Shown here: piece after piece, positions 52,248-63,670 of the stretch
Numbering within the stretch: position 1 is the first letter of the stretch
How the letters are laid out: the number at the start of each line of letters is the position of its first letter
Virus record (IMG/VR): IMGVR_UViG_3300049433_000291
Length of the DNA stretch: 64,000 nucleotides
Reading direction: 5' to 3' (one strand)
Source: an uncultured virus (IMG/VR IMGVR_UViG_3300049433_000291)
Taxonomy: Duplodnaviria; Heunggongvirae; Uroviricota; Caudoviricetes
The notes under the pieces: generated by a model
The model's database searches: none
The model's input: only the letters and a program-made list of their open reading frames with translations
What the model was told of the DNA's origin: nothing
Translations under genes and position numbers: made by a program

Positions 52248-52326
52248 GGAACTACTTTAGGAGTTCCGGAGCAATTTTTTCGGCGAGAGATTTTGTCTCC
52301 CGGTTTGGGCCGCGCTTAGCGCGGCC
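52248..52326. other. Multi-hairpin non-coding element
   Basis: GGAACT..AGTTCC, GAGA..TCTC and GGCCGCGC-TTA-GCGCGGCC hairpins. Confidence 0.45.
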
Positions 52327-52474
52327 TGGTGTTTTTCGATCTTGTTAAGGAGAATCTTGGTGGTGGCAGTGGCGCGTGGGCGACACAATCTTGGCGCCGT
52401 GAGAATTTAGAACGACCCACGCTAGTGAATGAGGCACTTGCGTGGGTCGTTCGCTCTCTCAGGAATTGGAATTT

Positions 52475-52666
52475 ATGGTATATGTGTTCCAATATGGCTC
52501 GAATACGCTATCGAGCCGGCTGAATTCCGAAACCAGGTTAAGAGGTGATGCGCGCCCAATAGGCGCAGTCTATACGGAAGCGAATTTTGAGCTGGATTTT
52601 GACGTGTGGAGTGATACAAACAACTGTGCCGTAGCGGATATCATCCGCGCGGATCGTTGCGAATAG
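52475..52666 (+). pseudogene. Truncated gamma-glutamylcyclotransferase-like gene
   Basis: YVFQYGSN N-terminal signature and 'FELDF...S....AVADII'; stops after 63 aa. Confidence 0.6.
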
Positions 52667-52743
52667 TCCAAGCTTGAGCGATGGTGTCAGTTGCTTTAGA
52701 TAAATAGCGCATCAGACTAGATCTGCATGAGGGCGCAAGACAA

Positions 52744-54176: not shown

Positions 54177-55217
54177 ATGAACGGTGCGCCCTCACTGGAA
54201 GCAGAACTAAGACGTCGAGCGGATCTTAACGAGGATGATGCCGTAGAGCTTTGGGGGCGCTACAGCAGTATGAAGTCATACCTATCGCGAGAATACTATC
54301 CCTGGATTCAGGCCAATAGTTCCTTTTTGACTGATCACGGAGATCAGCACATAAAATCAGTGATTCAGGCAGCCAGCGCACTTATGAAAAGGCATCTGGA
54401 TCCTGAGACCGACATCAGGAGGAGAACGCTGTCTTCTTTGGATCTATTCTTAATCCTCTCTGGCATTCTGTGGCACGACGTGGGGAATGTTTATGAAAGG
54501 TCTGGCCATGCTGCACGCGTTGCACAGATGACAGAGGGAATCAAGAAACTTGGATTTCCCGACTTAGCAATTCACCGTCTCGTTGTAGAAATTGCGGCGG
54601 CTCACTCAGGCAAGACTGGATTGACGAAAGCTCGTCCTGAGGAGGATGCCTCGATGCTCCATGGAACGTACACTGTCTATACGAGAGGTTTAGCTGCTAT
54701 CGTGCGATTAGCCGACGAGGTGTCTGAGAATCGCTTCCGTATCAGCACGGAGCTATTACCAGACGTTCCTGATGAGAACCGTATATTTTGGCAGTACGCG
54801 AACAGCGTGACCGCTTCAAGACCTGAGCCTGAAAGAAGGCGAATCGTTATAACCATAGAGTTACAAGAGGAAGTGGCTATTGAAAGATTCCTATGTCCCG
54901 AGTTTCCCAGTCGAGTAGACGACGAAAGCAAGATGCACTTAATGGATTACATTGTATGTCGGCTGGAAAAGATGAACAACGAAAGGGCCTATTGCTCAGC
55001 CGCATTTGGGAGATACGACACGATCGACGAAATCGAGGCTAGGTTTGCCCTCCTGAATGGCATCAATCGGATAAAGGAAACTACTGTTTTCTTTGGAGAT
55101 GCCGGTCTCAAAAGCGGTGATCAGAACGCTTACCCAAACATAAACGTCTTCGAGGAGTTTTATACTGACCATCCAGATTGGAGACCAGAGCGGATTAAGG
55201 AGGCGCTGTCGCAATGA
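54177..55217 (+). CDS. HD-domain metal-dependent hydrolase (HD-CE-like)
   Basis: FLTDHG..HI..V, WHDVGN, H, AAAHS, LAAIVRLADE. Confidence 0.85.
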   Translation: MNGAPSLEAELRRRADLNEDDAVELWGRYSSMKSYLSREYYPWIQANSSFLTDHGDQHIKSVIQAASALMKRHLDPETDIRRRTLSSLDLFLILSGILWHDVGNVYERSGHAARVAQMTEGIKKLGFPDLAIHRLVVEIAAAHSGKTGLTKARPEEDASMLHGTYTVYTRGLAAIVRLADEVSENRFRISTELLPDVPDENRIFWQYANSVTASRPEPERRRIVITIELQEEVAIERFLCPEFPSRVDDESKMHLMDYIVCRLEKMNNERAYCSAAFGRYDTIDEIEARFALLNGINRIKETTVFFGDAGLKSGDQNAYPNINVFEEFYTDHPDWRPERIKEALSQ

Positions 55218-57055
55218 GCCAGAACAATACATCAGTTGACGGCTCAACCACCTTCACAAATCCCTTTGTTGTTGAGAGCCCTGAAAAACTTACCACCGCA
55301 CAGATAGTGGATCTATTCGTCACAAAGTTTACGGATATCGAGACCGTAAAGCAGCGCAAACATACGTTCATCTGGGGTTCACGCGGTGCCGGCAAGAGCA
55401 TGATGCTTAGATACCTAGAGCCCCAATGTCAAAGTCTTGTTTCGGGTGGCATCAGCGAGTTTTTTGGACAAGGTAATCCGTTTTTTGCCGTGTATTGTCC
55501 CTGCAAAGAAGGACAACCGAACAAGACAGAGCTTCTCCTGCTTGATAAGTACTCCACACTCATTATTAGTGAACACATGATGAACCTGTCGATTGCCGAC
55601 AGGTTAGTTGACTCATTGCGGATACAGTTCCCGAAAGATTTCTTTGGAAAAGAGGAGTGTACTAGCTTCGTCAACAAAACAGTGAGACTCTTTGATAGGG
55701 CGTCAATCGCGTCTTCGATTGAGCAGGTTAACTCCGTGGTGGACCTCGAAACAAACCCGCTTGATTGGCTTCAAGAACTTTTCATAGCCGAGAATAGAAA
55801 AGTTAGCAATTATTTGACGCGAAACGCCTTGAGCGGCGGTGGCGCGGTCTACGAAGGCGCCACCAGCGGTTACCACGACTTCATGCTACCTTTGATGAAG
55901 TTGGCGCAAGGATTCGCCAGTCTAAATTCCGCCTCAATATATGTGCTACTTGATGATGCGGGCAAGTTGACTAAAGAGCAGCAGAGCATCGTCAACACCT
56001 GGATTGCAAATAGAGATCAGTCAGCGATCTGTTTGAAAGTATCAGCGCTCCGCGAAGAATACAAGACCTTCCTAACCCGTGACGGTGGGCTAATTGAGAA
56101 GCCACACGATTACTCCAAGGTTGATGTCGAAGAACTCTACACGCAATCCAAAGAAGATTACGCTCAAAAAGTAAAACTCATTGCAAATCGGCGTCTAGAA
56201 TTATCAGAGGTCCCAACAAAGGACATTGAGCAGTTTCTACCGTCGGATCCGACCGAAGAAGCTCTGTTAGACGACTTCAGGAAGGAGACCGCAGCACAGT
56301 GGGAAATCGAGGGTCAGCCTGGGCGCCAGCGAGACTACGTGACCAGATATGCGACCGCAAGACTATTTCAGCATTTAAGAGCCAGTAGACAGCGCAAGAG
56401 TTATGCGGGCTTCCAGAATATTGTGCATTTGTCCTCCGGCGTTGTGAGAGATTTTTTGGAGCCGTGTTATCTGATGTTCGATGAGTATGTCAGCGGAGAT
56501 CGGGACCCGAGCACAGTTTCAGTCATCCCTCCCGCGTTTCAGAATGAGGTACTGTTCAGATATTCGGAAGAACTGATCTTAGGAAAGTTCGAGGATATTC
56601 GAAAGAACCTACCCCCGGAGAAATGGCCCCAGGTTGATGCGCTAAAAACGCTGTTGGAATCGCTCGGACGACTCTTTTACGAGAGGCTCCATGATCCGGA
56701 AGCGCGAGAGGCGCGGTTGTTCTCTTTTACTGTAAGAGGCCAGGTTACTGCTGACGTGGCAGATGTGCTCGACTTAGGTGTTCGTCATCGCTACTTTCAG
56801 CTTCGCACGTATAGCACGAAGGAAGGCGGCGGTCGGGAGAGCTGGTACATCCTCAACCGGTGGCTGTGCCCAGCTTACAAGCTCGACCCGACCGGCTTTG
56901 AGGGAAGGATCTCTCTTACACCAAGATTCATTCAGTTAGCCACCGAAGATCCCGATAGATTTGTCCGACTAAGACTGAAGCAAATGGACGATGACTCGCC
57001 GGACAAGGATAGACAGCCCACTTTGTTTTCGCTTGAAGAGGAGGCGGTGGGATGA
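55214..57055 (+). CDS. P-loop ATPase (ORC/CDC6-like, STAND-related), copy 1
   Basis: NPF, GSRGAGKS, LLDD, SSGVVRDFL; ATGA overlap with the HD gene. Confidence 0.85.
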   Translation: MSQNNTSVDGSTTFTNPFVVESPEKLTTAQIVDLFVTKFTDIETVKQRKHTFIWGSRGAGKSMMLRYLEPQCQSLVSGGISEFFGQGNPFFAVYCPCKEGQPNKTELLLLDKYSTLIISEHMMNLSIADRLVDSLRIQFPKDFFGKEECTSFVNKTVRLFDRASIASSIEQVNSVVDLETNPLDWLQELFIAENRKVSNYLTRNALSGGGAVYEGATSGYHDFMLPLMKLAQGFASLNSASIYVLLDDAGKLTKEQQSIVNTWIANRDQSAICLKVSALREEYKTFLTRDGGLIEKPHDYSKVDVEELYTQSKEDYAQKVKLIANRRLELSEVPTKDIEQFLPSDPTEEALLDDFRKETAAQWEIEGQPGRQRDYVTRYATARLFQHLRASRQRKSYAGFQNIVHLSSGVVRDFLEPCYLMFDEYVSGDRDPSTVSVIPPAFQNEVLFRYSEELILGKFEDIRKNLPPEKWPQVDALKTLLESLGRLFYERLHDPEAREARLFSFTVRGQVTADVADVLDLGVRHRYFQLRTYSTKEGGGRESWYILNRWLCPAYKLDPTGFEGRISLTPRFIQLATEDPDRFVRLRLKQMDDDSPDKDRQPTLFSLEEEAVG

Positions 57056-58074
57056 GACATTGGTCCGTAGACGAACTGACGAACCACGGCGGTCTTCAGA
57101 CGATACGAGAAGGAAGCGTCCCAGACGACATGTTTCTCGTTTCTGCCAGTTATGAAGCTAGAACCCTTACCGTGGCGCAGTCTCTCGCCGGTGACTATAG
57201 GGCCACACGAGGAGTTATATATGTAAACCAAGAGCTGTTGAGAGATCCTCAGAGCGATAGAGTTAGGCCACACCTTGATGAGCTAGTACATCTTTTGCTC
57301 TCTCACTGTGAGTCAATTGATCAAGCGGAGGGCAGTTGGCTTGATCCGAAGCGCCAACTCTTAGCCCTGCGAAGGGCATTAGTTACGTCCGCATACGAGC
57401 CGATGCAGGATGTTGCTGTGACCGTTGACACCACAACCTTCAATCGAGAATCGCTCTTGACTGCTATGGCCCTACTCCGAAATCATTTTCCCGCTTCGAA
57501 AATAAGGGTAGCCTATACGTCACCTCAAAAGCACGGGGAATGGCTGAGCCAAGGTTACCGAAGTGTGCGAAATGTAATGAGCTTCGCTGGAATTCAGCAA
57601 TCCAGCCGTCCCACACTTCTGGTTGTTTTATCTGGTTTTGAACCTGAGCGGACTTTGAAACTCATAGAGGAGCATGAGCCATCGAAAGTCTTACTCGGAA
57701 TTGGGGATCCTCCGACAAATCAGCAATTCTTGCAAAGGAATCTCGATGAACAAAAGCTAATACTGGCTAGACAGGAGGTTGAGAAGTTCAGTTTTCCAGC
57801 AAGTGACATGCTGCTCTGTCGCGACTCGTTGGAAACTCTTTTGCAAGCGTACTTGAAGAGTCACAACATCGCTTTAGCTCCAATGAGCACCAAACTTTCT
57901 ACGCTTGCTGTCTTCCTGGTCGCCGAGGAGCATCCGGAGATTCAGGTTACTTACTGTGTTCCTGGAGAATACAACACCGATAGCTATTCTTCGGGCGCGG
58001 ACAGCGTATTCGTTGGTGAACTGCCACAACGCTCGGTAGAAGCGAAAGCTTTGGGCGTTCCGGATACTAGTTGA
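57052..58074 (+). CDS. ATPase partner protein, copy 1 (tandem Rossmann/CARF-like fold suspected)
   Basis: ASYEAR, VDTTTF, GFEPER, APMSTKL; ATGA overlap; paralogue of 60826..61803. Confidence 0.7.
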   Translation: MRHWSVDELTNHGGLQTIREGSVPDDMFLVSASYEARTLTVAQSLAGDYRATRGVIYVNQELLRDPQSDRVRPHLDELVHLLLSHCESIDQAEGSWLDPKRQLLALRRALVTSAYEPMQDVAVTVDTTTFNRESLLTAMALLRNHFPASKIRVAYTSPQKHGEWLSQGYRSVRNVMSFAGIQQSSRPTLLVVLSGFEPERTLKLIEEHEPSKVLLGIGDPPTNQQFLQRNLDEQKLILARQEVEKFSFPASDMLLCRDSLETLLQAYLKSHNIALAPMSTKLSTLAVFLVAEEHPEIQVTYCVPGEYNTDSYSSGADSVFVGELPQRSVEAKALGVPDTS

Positions 58075-58351: not shown

Positions 58352-60829
58352 ATGGCAATCCCATTCCTCACCGTTGCGATCGGTTATATGGCGGGTCTCG
58401 GCAAAGGCCTAGCCGTTAACTTGGCAGCAGCAGAGATCTACGCAAGATTCAAGAAAGAGGACTTATTCTCATTGTTGGAGCGCTGCCTTGAGGATGCTAT
58501 GAAAAACCGATCTCATATCCTCGATAGCGCAGCAGTCTTACCAGGAGGATCTGTTCAAGGTGCGTACTTGGATAAAGAAAGGCTCCGGGATTACTTGGCA
58601 AAGAACCAGTCTATCGTCCCATCGCCCTCTGAATCAGGGGCGGAGAACCCGTGGCGAGAATATCTGAAACCCTTTGAGGAAATCATTGTTATTCCCACTT
58701 TCAAAGCCGAAAGCGAACGCCTAAATTCCATACAGGATGTGCTCGATGAAGCTTCGCGACTCTTTACCGCACGAGTTCCTTATCAGCAGCCTGCATTCCA
58801 AGAACTGTTGCTGAAATTCCAGGAGAAACACAGCGACGAACACAAGGAAATCATCAAGAAGATCGATGCATTAAAACCAAGTGGTCCTTCTCTATTAATC
58901 GAAGTCGGGCATGATGAAAACCCAATCGCGGAGATTACAGTGAGCGCATGGGTCAATCCTTTTTCGATCGTCGCGGCTGACGATTTGGAGCTCACCAATC
59001 CAGAACACGTCAGACAGATTAGGAACCTTTTCATTGCCAGATACACTGACCTGCCAACAATCCAAAAACACTACAATACTATCCTCGAAGGCCAGCGCGG
59101 TACTGGGAAGACAATGATCATGAAGTATTTAGCCTTCGAAACTCAAATCCTAGAATGGGTTGAGAAGAAGAAACGGCAAGGTGCCGAATTCTTATCGTCC
59201 CCGGAGAATTTCATAGGTGTCTACTCAAAGCTCGGTCAGGGTGTTTTTGACAAGACTGACTTTGAGGCTATTAGCGACAAGACCAGGCGTGATCGCATCT
59301 TTGAACATCGACTCACGCTACAATTACTGTCTGACGTTCTCGATACGATGAAAGCCGTATACCAGCACTTCCCTCCTAGCACCGAAGACGTAAGAAGAAT
59401 TAAGCAAGCACTGAACTCCCTTTTGAAAACCAACGGGACCATAGATGTATGTCTGACGGCGAGTGATTTGATTAGAGCGGCTCAAGATCATATTTCCTTC
59501 ATTTCAGTCCAAGAGGTAGACGAACACTTGGGTTCGGTGTCACCAGGTGGTGGAACCAGCTCGACAGACTTTAATCCAAGCCTGACACTGTCCGGACAAC
59601 TGATACCCTTTCTTAAGTTGCTTCGACAATCGTGCAGTACAAGCGTGCCATTCTTCCTCATGCTAGATGATTTTGATGTACTCGAGCCATTTCAGCAGGA
59701 GAGAGTTTTCAAAACGGCTTCGTCTAGGCAATTGGGCACAGTCTGTTTCAAGTTCGGTGTCATGATTCATGGCAAAAAGGTTTTGCTATCGGGTGAGGGT
59801 AGAACGTTTCGCAATAGCGATGACTTTAACCGGATTGACCTTGACTGGACCGAGGGAGGGCTCCATGAGAATTACCAGAAATCGCTTATTGATATTGCCC
59901 ATGCTCGTTTGGAAGCTGCCGGTTCAGGTTGGAACGCCCAACTGTCATCGTTGCTCCCAGAATGGCAGCGCGGTAATGAGATATTTCTCGAGGTCAGAAC
60001 AGTAATGGAGTCTGAATGGGAAACGGACGAAAAGCCAACCGACTCCAAGAGTGATTACGTTTCAAAATATGGAAGCGCCAGATTCTTCCAGACGCTTAGA
60101 AAAAGAAAAATCAGGATGCGATATGCAGGCCTCGAATACATTACGATGGTCTCTTCGGGTATCTATCGTCAGTTTTTGGAAATCTGCAAGCTGATTTTTG
60201 ATCGTGCTCACGATGAAGGCTGGATACCAGAAAACGGCGGAGTTCGCGCTGAGATTCAGGATATAGCAGTGCGCGAGTATTCTGAGGAAATGATCCAACA
60301 GTTTTCACGCACATCCGGGGACGCTCAATCTCTGCTTCACGGCAATATTGAGGTCACTTCCTCACATATGACTACACTTATTGATAGCCTTTGTGACGTT
60401 TTCTATTCGCGGCTTCATACTCCGGTTGGTGTACTGGGGAGTGGCGAGCCTGAAATCATTTGCGTGGCAGTGCGTGATGATCTTGGTCGGTGCCCGGAGG
60501 CTGACATCCTATTAAAGATTGCTGTCAGAGAATCAATCCTTCATCGGTTTCAATACGCGCCAAAAACTTCGGGCGGTCCGCCTCTTCCGGCTTTCATGTT
60601 GAATAGAAGATTAGGTCCACGCCGGGACTTAAGCATCAGGCGTATGCAAGGGCGAATTGAGGTTGAAGCTGCTGACATCATTTTAGCGGCGAAAGACCGT
60701 AGAGAGTTTTTTCAGAAGATGCAGGGAAAAAAGGTGAATGCTGACCGAACGAGCATAGACGATACATCGCAGCAGGTTGGCCTTCCGTTAGGAAAAGTAA
60801 TGGGAGAGTCTGAACAGACTGAGCAATGA
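58352..60829 (+). CDS. P-loop ATPase (ORC/CDC6-like), copy 2, with extra ~190-aa N-terminal domain
   Basis: ATG 58352 after GAGGAG; NPF, GQRGTGKT, MLDD, SSGIYRQFL; paralogue of 55214..57055. Confidence 0.85.
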   Translation: MAIPFLTVAIGYMAGLGKGLAVNLAAAEIYARFKKEDLFSLLERCLEDAMKNRSHILDSAAVLPGGSVQGAYLDKERLRDYLAKNQSIVPSPSESGAENPWREYLKPFEEIIVIPTFKAESERLNSIQDVLDEASRLFTARVPYQQPAFQELLLKFQEKHSDEHKEIIKKIDALKPSGPSLLIEVGHDENPIAEITVSAWVNPFSIVAADDLELTNPEHVRQIRNLFIARYTDLPTIQKHYNTILEGQRGTGKTMIMKYLAFETQILEWVEKKKRQGAEFLSSPENFIGVYSKLGQGVFDKTDFEAISDKTRRDRIFEHRLTLQLLSDVLDTMKAVYQHFPPSTEDVRRIKQALNSLLKTNGTIDVCLTASDLIRAAQDHISFISVQEVDEHLGSVSPGGGTSSTDFNPSLTLSGQLIPFLKLLRQSCSTSVPFFLMLDDFDVLEPFQQERVFKTASSRQLGTVCFKFGVMIHGKKVLLSGEGRTFRNSDDFNRIDLDWTEGGLHENYQKSLIDIAHARLEAAGSGWNAQLSSLLPEWQRGNEIFLEVRTVMESEWETDEKPTDSKSDYVSKYGSARFFQTLRKRKIRMRYAGLEYITMVSSGIYRQFLEICKLIFDRAHDEGWIPENGGVRAEIQDIAVREYSEEMIQQFSRTSGDAQSLLHGNIEVTSSHMTTLIDSLCDVFYSRLHTPVGVLGSGEPEIICVAVRDDLGRCPEADILLKIAVRESILHRFQYAPKTSGGPPLPAFMLNRRLGPRRDLSIRRMQGRIEVEAADIILAAKDRREFFQKMQGKKVNADRTSIDDTSQQVGLPLGKVMGESEQTEQ

Positions 60830-61803
60830 TGGAGTCAATAAGCGAAGTGCTTGGTCAAATTGAGCCGACCGCTGGTGATAAGGATTCAGTCCTCATAACG
60901 TGCGCTAGCTTTGAGGAGCGTTCAACTGCGGTGGCGCAACGACTCGCTCAGAATTATGCCGCGGAACATACCTTCATTTTTCGGTCAACCGAATATGGGG
61001 ACTTGGGGGACTCACCTGAATACTTTCAATTTATCGAAAGCAAAATGACTAGCATTAGTAAGAACAAGCCTAGTGTGATCAAATTCTCCATTGATCACTC
61101 GATCCCTTCCATGGCCCAGTTTGAAGGCTCCTACCGGGAACTCAAAGCGACCTCGTTGGTTAGCAACGTCTCAGTGGACGTTACAACATTTCCACGGCAG
61201 GAATTGTTAATGCTGCTGCGCGTTTTGGACAGCCAATCCGATCTTGCCTCCACGCGGCTCTTCTACGGAGAGCCGCTTAGGTATTGCACCGAGGACGCGG
61301 GCGGATGGCTCACTAGAGGAGTCAAATCTGTGCGCCCCGTTCCTGGCTTCGGTGGAGTTCAGCCCCCGAACAAGAAGAAGAATCTGCTGATAATGTTTCT
61401 GGGCCATGAGGATGAGCGAGCTGCAATTACATGGAAGCGACATCAGCCGAGAAAAACTATTGCTATTGTCCCGGATCCGAACTATCGGAAGGAGATGAAC
61501 GGCATAGTTGAAAGAACGCATCAGCCGCTGTTTACGAAACTGAGCACAACGGAATTCTATCCGGCAGTTCCCGCCCGAGGGATAGTGGAGTCCGAGAATG
61601 CGGTGTTGAGGATATGGGAGGAGCATCATGAATCCTACTACATAGTTGTGGCTCCTCTCGGGACTAAGTTACAGACGTTGGGTATCTATAGAGCGGTGCG
61701 GCGAAGACCGGATATTCAGATCACGTATGCGATACCTTCAATCTATAACTACCGGAATTATTCTGTTGGGGTAAACCGCATTTGGGAGATCCATTGGAAC
61801 TAA
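60826..61803 (+). CDS. ATPase partner protein, copy 2 (tandem Rossmann/CARF-like fold suspected)
   Basis: ASFEER, VDVTTF, GHEDER, APLGTKL; ATGA overlap. Confidence 0.7.
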   Translation: MMESISEVLGQIEPTAGDKDSVLITCASFEERSTAVAQRLAQNYAAEHTFIFRSTEYGDLGDSPEYFQFIESKMTSISKNKPSVIKFSIDHSIPSMAQFEGSYRELKATSLVSNVSVDVTTFPRQELLMLLRVLDSQSDLASTRLFYGEPLRYCTEDAGGWLTRGVKSVRPVPGFGGVQPPNKKKNLLIMFLGHEDERAAITWKRHQPRKTIAIVPDPNYRKEMNGIVERTHQPLFTKLSTTEFYPAVPARGIVESENAVLRIWEEHHESYYIVVAPLGTKLQTLGIYRAVRRRPDIQITYAIPSIYNYRNYSVGVNRIWEIHWN

Positions 61804-61879: not shown

Positions 61880-63670
61880 ATGTCGAACGTAACTTATGTC
61901 ACATCCTTACTGTCGCGGCAATATAAGGATCCGTCCCTTAATAACCATCGTGATCCACTAGATGAAATAGTATTTATTCTCCTTTCCGAAAAGACCGACG
62001 AAGCTAAGTACACAACCGCCTTCAGAAATTTGAAGGCTCGCTTTCCTCGCTGGACAGGAGTTCTCAGCGCGCCCGTGCGCGAGATCAAGACGGCGATCGA
62101 GACCGCCGGAATGGGTAACCGACGCGCAAATCTCCTTCGTCGACTATTTAAAGCCATTGTTGAAAGGTTTGGCGCTCTGGATCTTTCAATGCTTGCAGGA
62201 ATGTCTTTGGAAGAAGCTGAGGCCGAACTGATTCAACTGCCAGGGATCGGACGCAAGGCCGCGCGATGTGTATTGCTGTATTGCTTCGATTTTCCTGCCT
62301 TACCTGTTGACGTGCACACTTATAGATTAGCTATTAGGTTAGGCATCCTTTCACGTCGGGTTTCTTATGAACAATCCCACGAAGCGTTGCCGCGCCTCGT
62401 TCCATCTCATTTGCGTCGGCGTTTCCACGTAAATGCAGTAGCTCATGGACGCGCCCGGTGCTTTGCCCGCAAGCCCGACTGTAATGGCTGTCCGCTGGCA
62501 GAACACTGCTCTTATCCGGAGGCGGTTAGACCTTTGCGGATCGTCGCGAGGCCTGAGCCACTTGCCATAGATCTTTTCGCTGGTGGTGGCGGATTAAGCC
62601 TAGGGTTTGAAAAGGCGGGTTTCCGCATCGTGCAATCGGTCGAGAGTAATTCAAGAGCCGCAGCTACATATGCACACAATAATCCTGACGTGGATCTTAT
62701 TGAAAGAGATATAAGGCAGATCAATCCGCGCACCTGTTTAGCACGCCTCGGACTTAGGCCTGGCGACCTGACTGCCTTAATCGGGGGGATTCCTTGTCAG
62801 GGATTTTCAGAATCAAACCGCCGCACGCGGAATTCAGCCAACCCTAATAACCATCTTTATAAGCGATTTATTCGGTTCTTGGATGTGCTTCGGCCAGCAT
62901 GGTTCGTGATAGAGAATGTCGCCGGCCTGCGAACGATGGAGCGCGGCTTGATTCTGCAGCGAATTATTCGCGAATGCAAAGCACTTGGCTATGAGGTTAA
63001 TTGGCGGGAACTCAATGCCGCCGATTTTGGAGTCCCTCAGGTTCGTCGCCGCATATTTATCATTGGAAATCGGTTTGGCTTGCCGATTCCGTTTCCGGAG
63101 GCGACGCATGGTCCAGGATGTCAACTGCGAGTAACGGTGCGTAAGGCGCTTGGCGATTTGCCCGTTCTTAAAAATGGTGCTTCCAAAGATTATCGGCCGT
63201 ACGGAAAAACTGGCCGAGGACTGACTAAGTACCAGCGCATGATGCGGGCTTCGAGGAACGGGACCGGCGAAGTTCAGGGGAATCTGGTTACACGAAGCAC
63301 AGACGTAATTATCAAGCGTTATCGGCACATACGGGCTGGGGGGAATTGGGAGGACATACCAACTGAACTGATGATCAATTATGAGGATCCTTCGAGATGT
63401 CACACTGGTATTTATCATCGATTAGAGTGGGACAAACCAGCCAAAGTTATTGGAAATTTTCGAAAGAACATGCTTATACACCCTCAACAGCATCGAGGCT
63501 TGTCGGTAAGAGAGGCCGCACGTCTTCAATCGTTTCCGGACGACTATGAGTTCCTGGACTCGATCGGATTCCAGCAACAACAGGTGGCCGATGCCGTACC
63601 GCCGCTCTTGGCGGAAGCGGTTGCCAAGCACATCATACGAGCTGATCGAACAATGGGCCCCAAACGATGA
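61880..63670 (+). CDS. Fusion of an HhH-GPD endonuclease III-like DNA glycosylase ([4Fe-4S]) and a DNA cytosine-C5 methyltransferase
   Basis: LPGIGRKAA, PVDVH, CFARKPDCNGCPLAEHC; then DLFAGGGG, PCQGFS, ENV, Q.RRR, RLQSFP, DAVPP in one frame. Confidence 0.9.
   Translation: MSNVTYVTSLLSRQYKDPSLNNHRDPLDEIVFILLSEKTDEAKYTTAFRNLKARFPRWTGVLSAPVREIKTAIETAGMGNRRANLLRRLFKAIVERFGALDLSMLAGMSLEEAEAELIQLPGIGRKAARCVLLYCFDFPALPVDVHTYRLAIRLGILSRRVSYEQSHEALPRLVPSHLRRRFHVNAVAHGRARCFARKPDCNGCPLAEHCSYPEAVRPLRIVARPEPLAIDLFAGGGGLSLGFEKAGFRIVQSVESNSRAAATYAHNNPDVDLIERDIRQINPRTCLARLGLRPGDLTALIGGIPCQGFSESNRRTRNSANPNNHLYKRFIRFLDVLRPAWFVIENVAGLRTMERGLILQRIIRECKALGYEVNWRELNAADFGVPQVRRRIFIIGNRFGLPIPFPEATHGPGCQLRVTVRKALGDLPVLKNGASKDYRPYGKTGRGLTKYQRMMRASRNGTGEVQGNLVTRSTDVIIKRYRHIRAGGNWEDIPTELMINYEDPSRCHTGIYHRLEWDKPAKVIGNFRKNMLIHPQQHRGLSVREAARLQSFPDDYEFLDSIGFQQQQVADAVPPLLAEAVAKHIIRADRTMGPKR

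Follow-up and report, generated by a model that had tools for sequence, protein, structure and literature searches.

The window analysed here, the whole 64,000-nt stretch of the IMG/VR record IMGVR_UViG_3300049433_000291 (an uncultured virus classed in the Caudoviricetes), encodes near its right end a single polypeptide that joins a DNA glycosylase of the helix-hairpin-helix (HhH)-GPD, endonuclease III (EndoIII) type to a cytosine-5 DNA methyltransferase (C5-MTase). The gene is the last of a cassette of defence-like genes, its catalytic residues are conserved among fused homologues, and its glycosylase belongs to a clade that is linked to C5-MTases, whether as a stand-alone neighbour or as a fusion partner. 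On these sequence comparisons we lean, with somewhat better than even confidence, towards a glycosylase that repairs the T:G or U:G mismatches left by deamination of 5-methylcytosine (5mC) or cytosine, in the manner of Vsr, Mig and MBD4, and that is tethered to its methylase.

A glycosylase and a methyltransferase in one chain

The fusion (Gly-MT, glycosylase first; the reverse order is called MT-Gly below) is one uninterrupted reading frame with an ATG start (Table 1). Pfam assigns HhH-GPD (PF00730) to residues 34–175 (E 1.9e-9), EndIII_4Fe-2S (PF10576) to residues 194–210 (21.2 bits against a cut-off of 20.5) and DNA_methylase (PF00145) to residues 230–586 (E 3.6e-63, 214 bits), and the NCBIfam model dcm TIGR00675 recognises the MTase half at 191.8 bits, above its cut-off of 100.65. 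The methylase carries motifs I, IV, VI, VIII, IX and X in order; motif I reads DLFAGGGGLSLGF, motif VI ENV, motif VIII QVRRRIF and motif IX RGLSVREAARLQSFPDDY. A preliminary description, made from the letters of the window, had reported an HhH motif with its lysine, a PVD aspartate and a four-cysteine cluster, continuing in frame into the C5-MTase motifs. All of these elements lie where it placed them, the lysine being K126 within LPGIGRK and the aspartate D144, and no stop codon interrupts the frame.

The N-terminal half is an HhH-GPD glycosylase of the Nth branch that keeps both the lyase Lys, at the position of Nth K120, and the catalytic Asp, and lyase activity is predicted for it. It forms a distinct clade and is not an orthologous Nth; it reaches only 94.3 bits on the nth model TIGR01083, for which the equivalog cut-off is 211.7. 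It also stays below the equivalog-domain cut-off of NF053634, the model of the DR2438 monofunctional glycosylase (111.5 versus 400 bits); stand-alone relatives that lie next to MTases score 94–152 bits on the same model.

The AlphaFold2 (AF2) model of the glycosylase domain (pLDDT 89) shows a complete EndoIII fold, contiguous over ~215 aa. Foldseek gave TM scores of 0.82 for EndoIII-1 and EndoIII-3 of D. radiodurans, 0.79 for Geobacillus EndoIII–DNA complexes, 0.78 for ROS1, 0.77 for Mig and 0.76 for E. coli Nth, and structures of ROS1 with 5mC DNA and with T:G DNA were among the matches. Ranked by sequence, EndoIII-1 came first (E 9e-29), followed by E. coli Nth (1.7e-20), ROS1 (4.6e-15), Mig (9.5e-12) and MutY (~5e-6). 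The fold comparison and an Atlas look-up agree on an EndoIII fold and do not discriminate the substrate. The domain bears neither mark of a Mig/MutY-type enzyme, these being a residue other than Lys at the HhH position and closest likeness to Mig or MutY.

EndoIII-1 (DR2438; PDB 4unf, 8a5c; NF053634) is the nearest relative that is both solved and characterised. It is a stand-alone protein, whereas the window domain is fused and, by its NF053634 score, not an equivalog. EndoIII-1 is described as weak on classic EndoIII substrates, mostly a monofunctional glycosylase and able to process single-stranded DNA (ssDNA), with R61 and Y100 as atypical DNA-contacting residues (PMC9268735). According to the alignment and the mutant names, R61 corresponds to K38 of the fusion, both being basic at the position equivalent to Gln-41, and Y100 corresponds to M78, both being wedge residues other than Leu. 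In the HhH motif of EndoIII-1, the Lys occupies the alignment column of K126.

Among solved structures, the best match of the MTase half is the catalytic domain of eukaryotic DNMT1 (162 bits), followed by the bacterial enzymes M.HaeIII (116) and M.HhaI (60). The best of five models of the full-length protein has a pLDDT of 87.9 and a pTM of 0.87 (mean pLDDT of the others, 75–82), with the linker at ~90 and lower confidence in the catalytic loop and the recognition region of the MTase. These values are a hint that the two domains pack as one unit.

To find homologues of the fusion, we used the glycosylase part as a query against proteins of 327–1043 aa only. The 81 matches comprised two MutY proteins and 79 relatives with 46–100% identity, of which 75 are 532–639 aa and four 367–391 aa long. 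Precomputed labels list both PF00730 and PF00145 for 70 of the relatives and PF00145 only for nine, and these nine still match the glycosylase query at E ≤ 4e-50. A search for proteins with both domains, as the preliminary description had proposed, thus yields many, and the weaknesses that it had foreseen, a stop or frameshift between the domains or homologues that are always split, are at odds with the uninterrupted frame and the 79 fused-type relatives. The fusion is neither an assembly nor a frameshift artefact. An alignment of 37 fused homologues (54–79% identity with the window protein; mean column identity 62%) shows no variation at D144, H146, the four Cys, P305-C306-Q307, ENV, Q387/R389/R391 or A570-D571, and at least 90% of its sequences keep K126. 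Both halves are therefore under purifying selection. For the sole named fused member, a protein of the planctomycete Calycomorphotria hydatis, the public annotation reads just 'DNA (cytosine-5-)-methyltransferase'.

The glycosylase clade and its methyltransferase partners

Metagenomes were scanned with nine aligned glycosylase domains as the query, which returned 19 close loci (55–72% identity), including two viral-contig repeats of one metagenome contig, L098. In each of the 15 close loci in which the sequence continues, the reading frame passes unbroken from the glycosylase into the MTase. A further 64 loci, 63 from metagenomes and one (L165) from viral contigs, with some near-duplicates among them (L100/L101, L140–L142), encode stand-alone glycosylases of ~220–265 aa that are 34–45% identical to the window domain. 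A C5-MTase lies within 300 nt of the glycosylase in 45 of these 64 loci, on the same strand in 43, and at a distance of 308–5601 nt in five more. Twelve loci are not evaluable, with a flank shorter than 600 nt; among the 52 evaluable relatives, 50 have a C5-MTase and two, with adequate flanks, have none. The MTases beside stand-alone glycosylases are only 25–39% identical to that of the window.

A search of representative sequences gave 8731 matches at E ≤ 1e-3 and 269 at E ≤ 1e-30, and 147 of the best 150 were examined. Nineteen of the 147 are at least 330 aa long; PF00145 is present in 14 of them, nine Gly-MT and five MT-Gly, while one of the other five has a GlnD-type domain and four have HhH-GPD only. 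We then placed 169 glycosylase domains in a tree (IQ-TREE quick search, LG+G4, SH-aLRT support only, rooted on a MutY). The window family is a single clade (SH-aLRT 96) of 13 fused rows and three short fragments, nested in a clade of 112 rows (SH-aLRT 100) that includes the MTase-adjacent stand-alone forms. Outside the larger clade lie the housekeeping Nth of the genome nearest to the window and the glycosylase of an archaeal locus, L011. The label 'fused' or 'alone' changes at least 15 times on the tree, and well-supported branches by themselves force at least six N-terminal and at least three C-terminal changes, in a count in which 'alone' rows include fragments and losses are indistinguishable from gains. 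Fusion to C5-MTases arose repeatedly, in both orders.

The companions of the stand-alone glycosylases were surveyed by running Pfam on 104 neighbouring open reading frames (ORFs) of at least 140 aa from 21 longer loci (L142 was dropped as a copy of L141). Some of the systems own nucleases: an HNH protein with two MTases in L119, Mrr_cat in L100 and L152, and a PD-(D/E)XK protein beside BREX in L134. Other contexts are a phage-type HTH–double-MTase arrangement (L150) and a LexA-like/recombinase element (L099). A GHKL-type ATPase (HATPase_c_3) and a PF20553 'putative O-methyltransferase' stand beside the C5-MTase and glycosylase in L100, L104, L107, L109 and L117; that this pair belongs to the R.HgiDII/R.BbrUII family was not confirmed, two L100 proteins giving no NCBIfam match. 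In L132 and L141 the companions are a protein of 700–870 aa without assignment and a DEAD helicase of ~1900 aa. A protein of the former kind also follows the MTase/glycosylase pair in L138, L153, L155 and L121, and giant ORFs, outside the Pfam batch, come next in L138 and L153. A module thus recurs in L132, L138, L141, L142, L153, L155 and L121, consisting of a C5-MTase, the glycosylase, the 700–870-aa protein, sometimes a protein of ~320 aa, and the helicase. The DEAD-box helicase of the module (~1860–1980 aa) has a faint DpdJ-like match, and no nuclease is recognisable in the module, which looks like another uncharacterised methylation-linked system.

The partner methylase also occurs without the glycosylase. 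Species-representative genomes, searched with the full alignment, contain 594 relatives of the MTase half, of which the best 80 were analysed. Nearly all of these 80 are stand-alone MTases covering residues ~228–588 at 30–57% identity, with the signature GNFRKNML. This recognition core is common to fused and stand-alone cassette MTases, which therefore probably share the same target. By tblastn with the neighbours of the window gene, the best 80 loci contain an ORC-like ATPase in 20 cases, a CARF-like gene in 18 and an HD-CE gene in 17. In the 20 genome loci the cassette genes adjoin the MTase directly, usually in the order MT–HD-CE–ATPase–CARF, and the stand-alone MTase is 42–57% identical to that of the window. 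None of the 20 non-fused cassettes has a relative of the glycosylase in its available flanks (up to 10 kb per side), so the glycosylase is dispensable to the cassette.

Other glycosylases became partners of the same MTase clade on separate occasions. A divergent HhH-GPD gene (22–26% identical) begins right after the MTase stop in L021 and L055. In L011 a divergent glycosylase gene overlaps the MTase start and is followed by a PRTase-CE gene, an ORC-CDC6-like ATPase and a CARF-like gene, the non-nuclease PRTase-CE occupying the HD-CE slot.

Motif X of the methylase differs between these groups. The preliminary description had read it as ADAVPP in place of the usual GNAVPP; the reading is correct, but the variant is no oddity of this gene, since it is invariant in the family. 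ADAVPP is present in 14 of the 15 fused loci in which the motif X region was found. The 20 non-fused cassette loci show GNAVPP (14), SNAVPP (2) and ADAVPP (1), with three unmatched; the single ADAVPP belongs to L003, the closest non-fused relative. In the remaining 60 genome loci, GNAVPP occurs in 58 of the 66 motif regions found. ADAVPP appears again in L120 and P0120, Gly-MT fusions elsewhere in the tree with an MTase only 28% identical; L011 has VDAVPP, and three other Gly-MT fusions (P0160, P0161 and P0173) have ANAVPP. The five MT-Gly fusions retain Gly-Asn, as GNAVPP, GNSVPP, GNAVPI or GNAVPV. Loss of Gly-Asn hence tracks a glycosylase attached to, or abutting, the MTase N-terminus across unrelated MTase lineages, while the MTases of stand-alone relatives have a Gly-Asn motif X, mostly GNAVPP. 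The change may reflect contact between the domains close to the cofactor pocket.

A proposed role in deamination repair, and its alternatives

Cytosine-5 methylation is mutagenic, a cost that bacteria are thought to meet mainly with Vsr. A C5-MTase can also promote deamination of its target C to U when S-adenosylmethionine is scarce. In the scheme that we favour, the methylase would mark its target C, and deamination of the 5mC, or of the target C, would give a T:G or U:G mismatch. The N-terminal domain would excise the T and/or U opposite G, and base-excision repair would restore C:G. Targeting would fall to the MTase half, which would place the glycosylase at methylated sites much like the methyl-CpG-binding domain of MBD4, and the role would equal that of Vsr for Dcm and of Mig.Mth for its methylase. 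Both T:G or U:G as the substrate and targeting by the methylase are inferred: all partners have 5mC in common and its liability is deamination, so that a T/U:G glycosylase would be the simplest function shared by every context.

Mig.Mth, a thermostable protein of Methanothermobacter (PDB 1kea), is an HhH-GPD/[4Fe-4S] glycosylase of Nth size, like the window domain, and is encoded beside the C5-MTase of a restriction–modification (R-M) system. It differs in being a separate gene of a thermophilic archaeon with Tyr126, whereas the window protein is fused and has Lys126. MBD4 resembles the fusion in combining a module that recognises methylated sites with an HhH glycosylase for T or U opposite G, but it is eukaryotic, and the targeting module of the window protein would be the methyltransferase itself. 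MBD4 is not known to have an iron–sulfur cluster or the lyase Lys. Its methyl-binding domain is reported to direct T/U:G repair to methylated CpG (PMC9266487), Mig.Mth to remove U or T opposite G (PMC3260424), and MIG to have Tyr126 at the HhH position and to act as a lyase only as the Y126K mutant (PMC9945173). Vsr (PF03852) shares the proposed role, T:G repair at the sites of its own methylase, and the habit of riding with C5-MTases. In fold and chemistry the two enzymes have nothing in common: Vsr, an endonuclease, makes a nick 5' of the T, while the window enzyme is a glycosylase.

Vsr was looked for among 137 ORFs flanking 29 cassette loci. It directly follows the CARF gene in L012, directly precedes the MTase in L019, and lies inside a neighbouring MTase/DUF4928 module in L007. 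Vsr is therefore near three of the 20 non-fused cassettes versus none of the eight fused loci examined. A tblastn search with three Vsr proteins of related loci as queries detected no Vsr-like sequence in the window, the fusion itself has no PF03852 match, and there were no Vsr matches among the 104 companion ORFs of the stand-alone glycosylases, a set of ORFs of at least 140 aa. On this thin pattern, Vsr may replace the glycosylase in some cassettes.

The preliminary description had offered three readings: a built-in repairer of 5mC deamination, a 5mC writer–eraser, and a restriction glycosylase in place of a missing nuclease. The first is favoured by the linkage across the clade, the dispensability of the glycosylase and the Vsr pattern, and the other two are less likely. 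Several observations nevertheless weigh against deamination repair. The lyase Lys K126 is kept, whereas MIG, a dedicated T:G glycosylase, has Tyr, and the domain is nearer to EndoIII-1 (9e-29) and Nth (1.7e-20) than to Mig (9.5e-12). Gene linkage is the only pointer to the putative substrate, and linkage to a methylase would equally be expected of a methylation-sensitive restriction glycosylase. The argument from displacement by Vsr is thin because Vsr is near only two to three of the 20 non-fused cassettes, and a thymidylate synthase that recurs in the cassette (see below) is not accounted for. In addition, EndoIII-1 is reported to be weakly active on thymine glycol (PMC9268735).

That same activity, together with the action of EndoIII-1 on ssDNA (PMC9268735), would suit a generic or auxiliary Nth without a specific tie to deamination, working on oxidised pyrimidines or apurinic/apyrimidinic (AP) sites or helping the methylase by binding DNA or flipping bases. 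The best family matches are indeed Nth-type models, and the Nth catalytic dyad and iron–sulfur cluster are intact. We nonetheless consider this role unlikely. The scores fall far under the equivalog cut-offs (94.3 versus 211.7 for nth, 111.5 versus 400 for DR2438), the nearest genome already has a housekeeping Nth, outside the clade, and neither the C5-MTases of 50 out of 52 evaluable relatives nor the recurrent fusion would be explained. A generic Nth fused by chance was rejected as the principal explanation on account of the clade-wide MTase linkage.

More doubtful still is a restriction or effector function, in which the protein, as a glycosylase and AP lyase, would excise a normal base at the unmethylated target in invading DNA and nick the strand through K126, while the MTase protects the host. 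This would amount to a Type IIC-like R-M system with a glycosylase for its nuclease, possibly gated or licensed by the ORC-like ATPase and the CARF sensor. R.PabI-type restriction glycosylases set a precedent for base excision as the restriction arm of an R-M system; they have a 'half-pipe' fold and are not known to be fused to their methylase. Nothing in the present analysis points to excision of normal bases by the window protein. With K126 and D144 conserved, strand cleavage is plausible, the linkage to the methylase is strict, and in the full-length model (pTM 0.87, linker pLDDT ~90, best of five) the two domains are predicted to pack as one unit. In some companion systems no nuclease is recognisable, for example those with an MTase, the glycosylase, the 700–870-aa protein and the giant helicase, and loci L087 and L092, which are without HD-CE; in L011 the non-nuclease PRTase-CE holds the HD-CE slot.

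Against such a function, the 20 non-fused cassettes retain all other genes without any glycosylase, and the clade also occurs in systems already equipped with HNH, Mrr or PD-(D/E)XK nucleases and next to MTases of phages or mobile elements. The domain is a minimal EndoIII fold of ~215 aa with no extra module to read a target sequence, and since its MTase partners come from many clades (25–39% identical), a restriction role would need specificity to re-evolve each time. The premise of a missing nuclease, from which the preliminary description had started, is weakened as well: the fusion follows an HD-CE gene of phosphohydrolase/nuclease type, two ATPases and two CARF-like genes, and related systems own nucleases, as listed above. 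If restriction were nevertheless the function, the methylase-linked DR2438-like clade, with its 269 representatives at E ≤ 1e-30, would form a large group of restriction glycosylases of the HhH-GPD type that has so far escaped recognition, which would account for several clade systems without a visible nuclease.

Finally, a 5mC or modified-cytosine glycosylase of the DEMETER (DME)/ROS1 kind, serving as a writer–eraser pair with the methylase or as a weapon against phage DNA with modified cytosines, is improbable: the ROS1 match is significant (E 4.6e-15, TM 0.78), DME and ROS1 are likewise HhH-GPD proteins with the Lys, the Asp and the [4Fe-4S] cluster, and the MTase half is DNMT1-like, but ROS1 ranks under Nth and EndoIII-1, the window domain is contiguous and has neither the split glycosylase domain nor the C-terminal domain of these plant enzymes (a discontinuous domain of the DML type, PMC3045615, and a zinc-finger/RRM part, PMC9266487), excising what its own methylase has made would be self-defeating and genotoxic, and we found nothing in support of the writer–eraser proposal.

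Full-text literature searches returned nothing on the fusion or the cassette, although supplements to CARF classifications may list such neighbourhoods, and a 2022 review on non-catalytic domains of DNA glycosylases contains no passage on fusion to a methyltransferase and no use of the word 'fusion'. The idea of a repair companion is established; this clade, its fusion and its place in the cassette are undescribed as far as we found. Deamination repair by the fused domain would point to a second, widespread answer to 5mC mutagenesis, an EndoIII-like clade that rides with or is fused to C5-MTases in numerous phyla and in defence systems of many kinds. It would be a prokaryotic counterpart of the eukaryotic MBD4 and DNMT–TDG logic, and it offers a testable substrate hypothesis for the puzzling enzymes of the D. 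radiodurans EndoIII-1 type. A natural single-chain enzyme that would 'methylate and proofread' is also a possible tool.

The cassette around the fusion

Seven tightly packed genes run in one orientation and end with the fusion (Table 1); ahead of it, two pairs of an ORC/Cdc6-like ATPase and a CARF-like gene follow a composite ThyA-like gene and an HD-CE gene. The label 'CARF6' for the CARF-like proteins is taken from PADLOC model names alone. The ThyA-like protein scores 139 bits on TIGR03283, the methanogen-type thymidylate synthase model, below the cut-off of 174.55, and the second ATPase has an N-terminal extension of ~240 aa without a family match.

Table 1. Features of the cassette and of the fusion gene, in window coordinates.
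Feature	Position	Strand	Basis
Left edge of the variable region	52393..52743	.	Synteny comparison with nearest genome
Gene 1: MtrA-like + ThyA-like + pterin-binding DUF4346, 475 aa	52744..54171	+	Pfam
HD-CE (PF24391, 59.7 bits), HD-superfamily protein, presumed effector	54177..55217	+	Pfam
ORC/Cdc6-like AAA+ ATPase no. 1 (PF24389, 302.5 bits)	55214..57055	+	Pfam
CARF-like protein no. 1 (PADLOC CARF6 model PDLC01917, E 1e-73)	57052..58074	+	PADLOC
ORC/Cdc6-like ATPase no. 2 (PF24389, 203.3 bits), 865 aa	58232..60829	+	Pfam, NCBIfam
CARF-like protein no. 2 (PDLC01917, E 1.3e-43), directly upstream of the fusion	60826..61803	+	PADLOC
Gly-MT fusion ORF, 596 aa (coordinates include the stop codon)	61880..63670	+	ORF list, Pfam, NCBIfam
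EndoIII-type HhH-GPD/[4Fe-4S] glycosylase domain, residues 1–215	61880..62524	+	Pfam/NCBIfam, AF2, Foldseek
Helix-hairpin-helix LIQLPGIGRKAARCVLLY; K126 (62255–62257) at the Nth lyase Lys position	62228..62281	+	Alignment, motif location
Catalytic Asp D144 within LPVDVH, invariant	62309..62311	+	Alignment
Iron–sulfur loop Cys-X6-Cys-X2-Cys-X5-Cys, C194/C201/C204/C210, all invariant	62459..62509	+	Pfam, alignment
18-residue linker SYPEAVRPLRIVARPEPL; R224 invariant, P225 nearly invariant, pLDDT ~90	62510..62563	+	Alignment, model
C5 DNA methyltransferase domain, residues 229–588	62564..63643	+	Pfam, NCBIfam, structure search
Motif IV GGIPCQGFS, catalytic Cys306	62783..62809	+	Alignment
Conserved target-recognition core RCHTGIYHRL...GNFRKNMLIHP	63395..63484	+	Alignment
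Motif X QQQVADAVPP (canonical GNAVPP)	63575..63604	+	Alignment

The nearest genome (G001) is 96% identical to the window until ~52393, where the match ends in the middle of a G001 contig; elsewhere in that genome there are only an Nth 29% identical and an MTase 36% identical to the two halves of the fusion. The cassette is absent from this genome despite 96% flanking identity and is therefore mobile or variable; it is a strain-variable insertion that covers at least 11.6 kb and extends past the right end of the window. A strong terminator-like hairpin (52305–52329; 11 pairs, eight of them G-C) stands just ahead of the synteny break. A promoter and terminator scan of the window gave fewer sites than shuffled sequences and, apart from this hairpin, no evidence of operon boundaries, and a tRNA scan of the window detected no gene and hence no clue to an integration site. 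As its modification gene, the fusion belongs to a mobile cassette of defence-like character with a putative anti-phage or other conflict function.

The proteins of the cassette are already catalogued, and we found no experimental study of them. The window genes match exactly the models of the CARF6/ORC-Cdc6-like/CE-effector/methylase cassettes (PF24389–PF24391 and PADLOC CARF6), and in order and content they agree with the genes of the 20 genome and 18 metagenome loci. The window branch differs from the catalogued type in that its methylase carries a glycosylase and comes last instead of first, and in its two pairs of ATPase and CARF genes. It is an informative addition to this family of ORC/Cdc6-like ATPase and CARF cassettes.

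Among the close fused loci, each of the 18 that include sequence upstream of the fusion has a CARF-like gene as its immediate neighbour there, and the ATPase is present in 14, HD-CE in nine and a ThyA-like gene in two. In L087 and L092 the fusion is preceded only by a second-type ATPase and a CARF gene, without HD-CE. These loci carry the second-type module alone, so that the window seems to combine two sensor modules with a single methylase. A conserved protein of ~620 aa, without a Pfam or NCBIfam match, follows the fusion in L087, L092 and L088. A scan of viral contigs found only three loci, two of them with the same sequence as L098, and no sign of a mainly phage-borne family. These two, L163 and L164, are IMG/VR contigs classed as viral and coincide with the L098 metagenome contig in identical coordinates; the cassette there reads HD-CE, ATPase, CARF and Gly-MT, followed by ThyX and a Ser/Thr kinase.

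Thymidylate synthases recur in the cassette from two non-homologous families, ThyA-like and ThyX. The ThyA-like domain is fused to MtrA-like and pterin-binding domains in the window and in L083 (4648–6054) and L084 (950–2389), and the ThyA-like protein of the window has a tblastn match in none of the best 80 of the 594 genome loci. ThyX is found in L005, L019, L062, L087, L088, L090, L098 and L011, sometimes with an N-terminal extension (560 aa in L087, 419 aa in L088). Overall, a thymidylate synthase is present at six of the eight fused loci examined versus three of the 20 non-fused cassettes. This recurrence suggests a tie to the thymidine/uracil nucleotide pool. Ribonucleotide reductase genes abut the cassettes of L006 and L014, and the folate genes FolE2 and FTCD_C flank that of L083.

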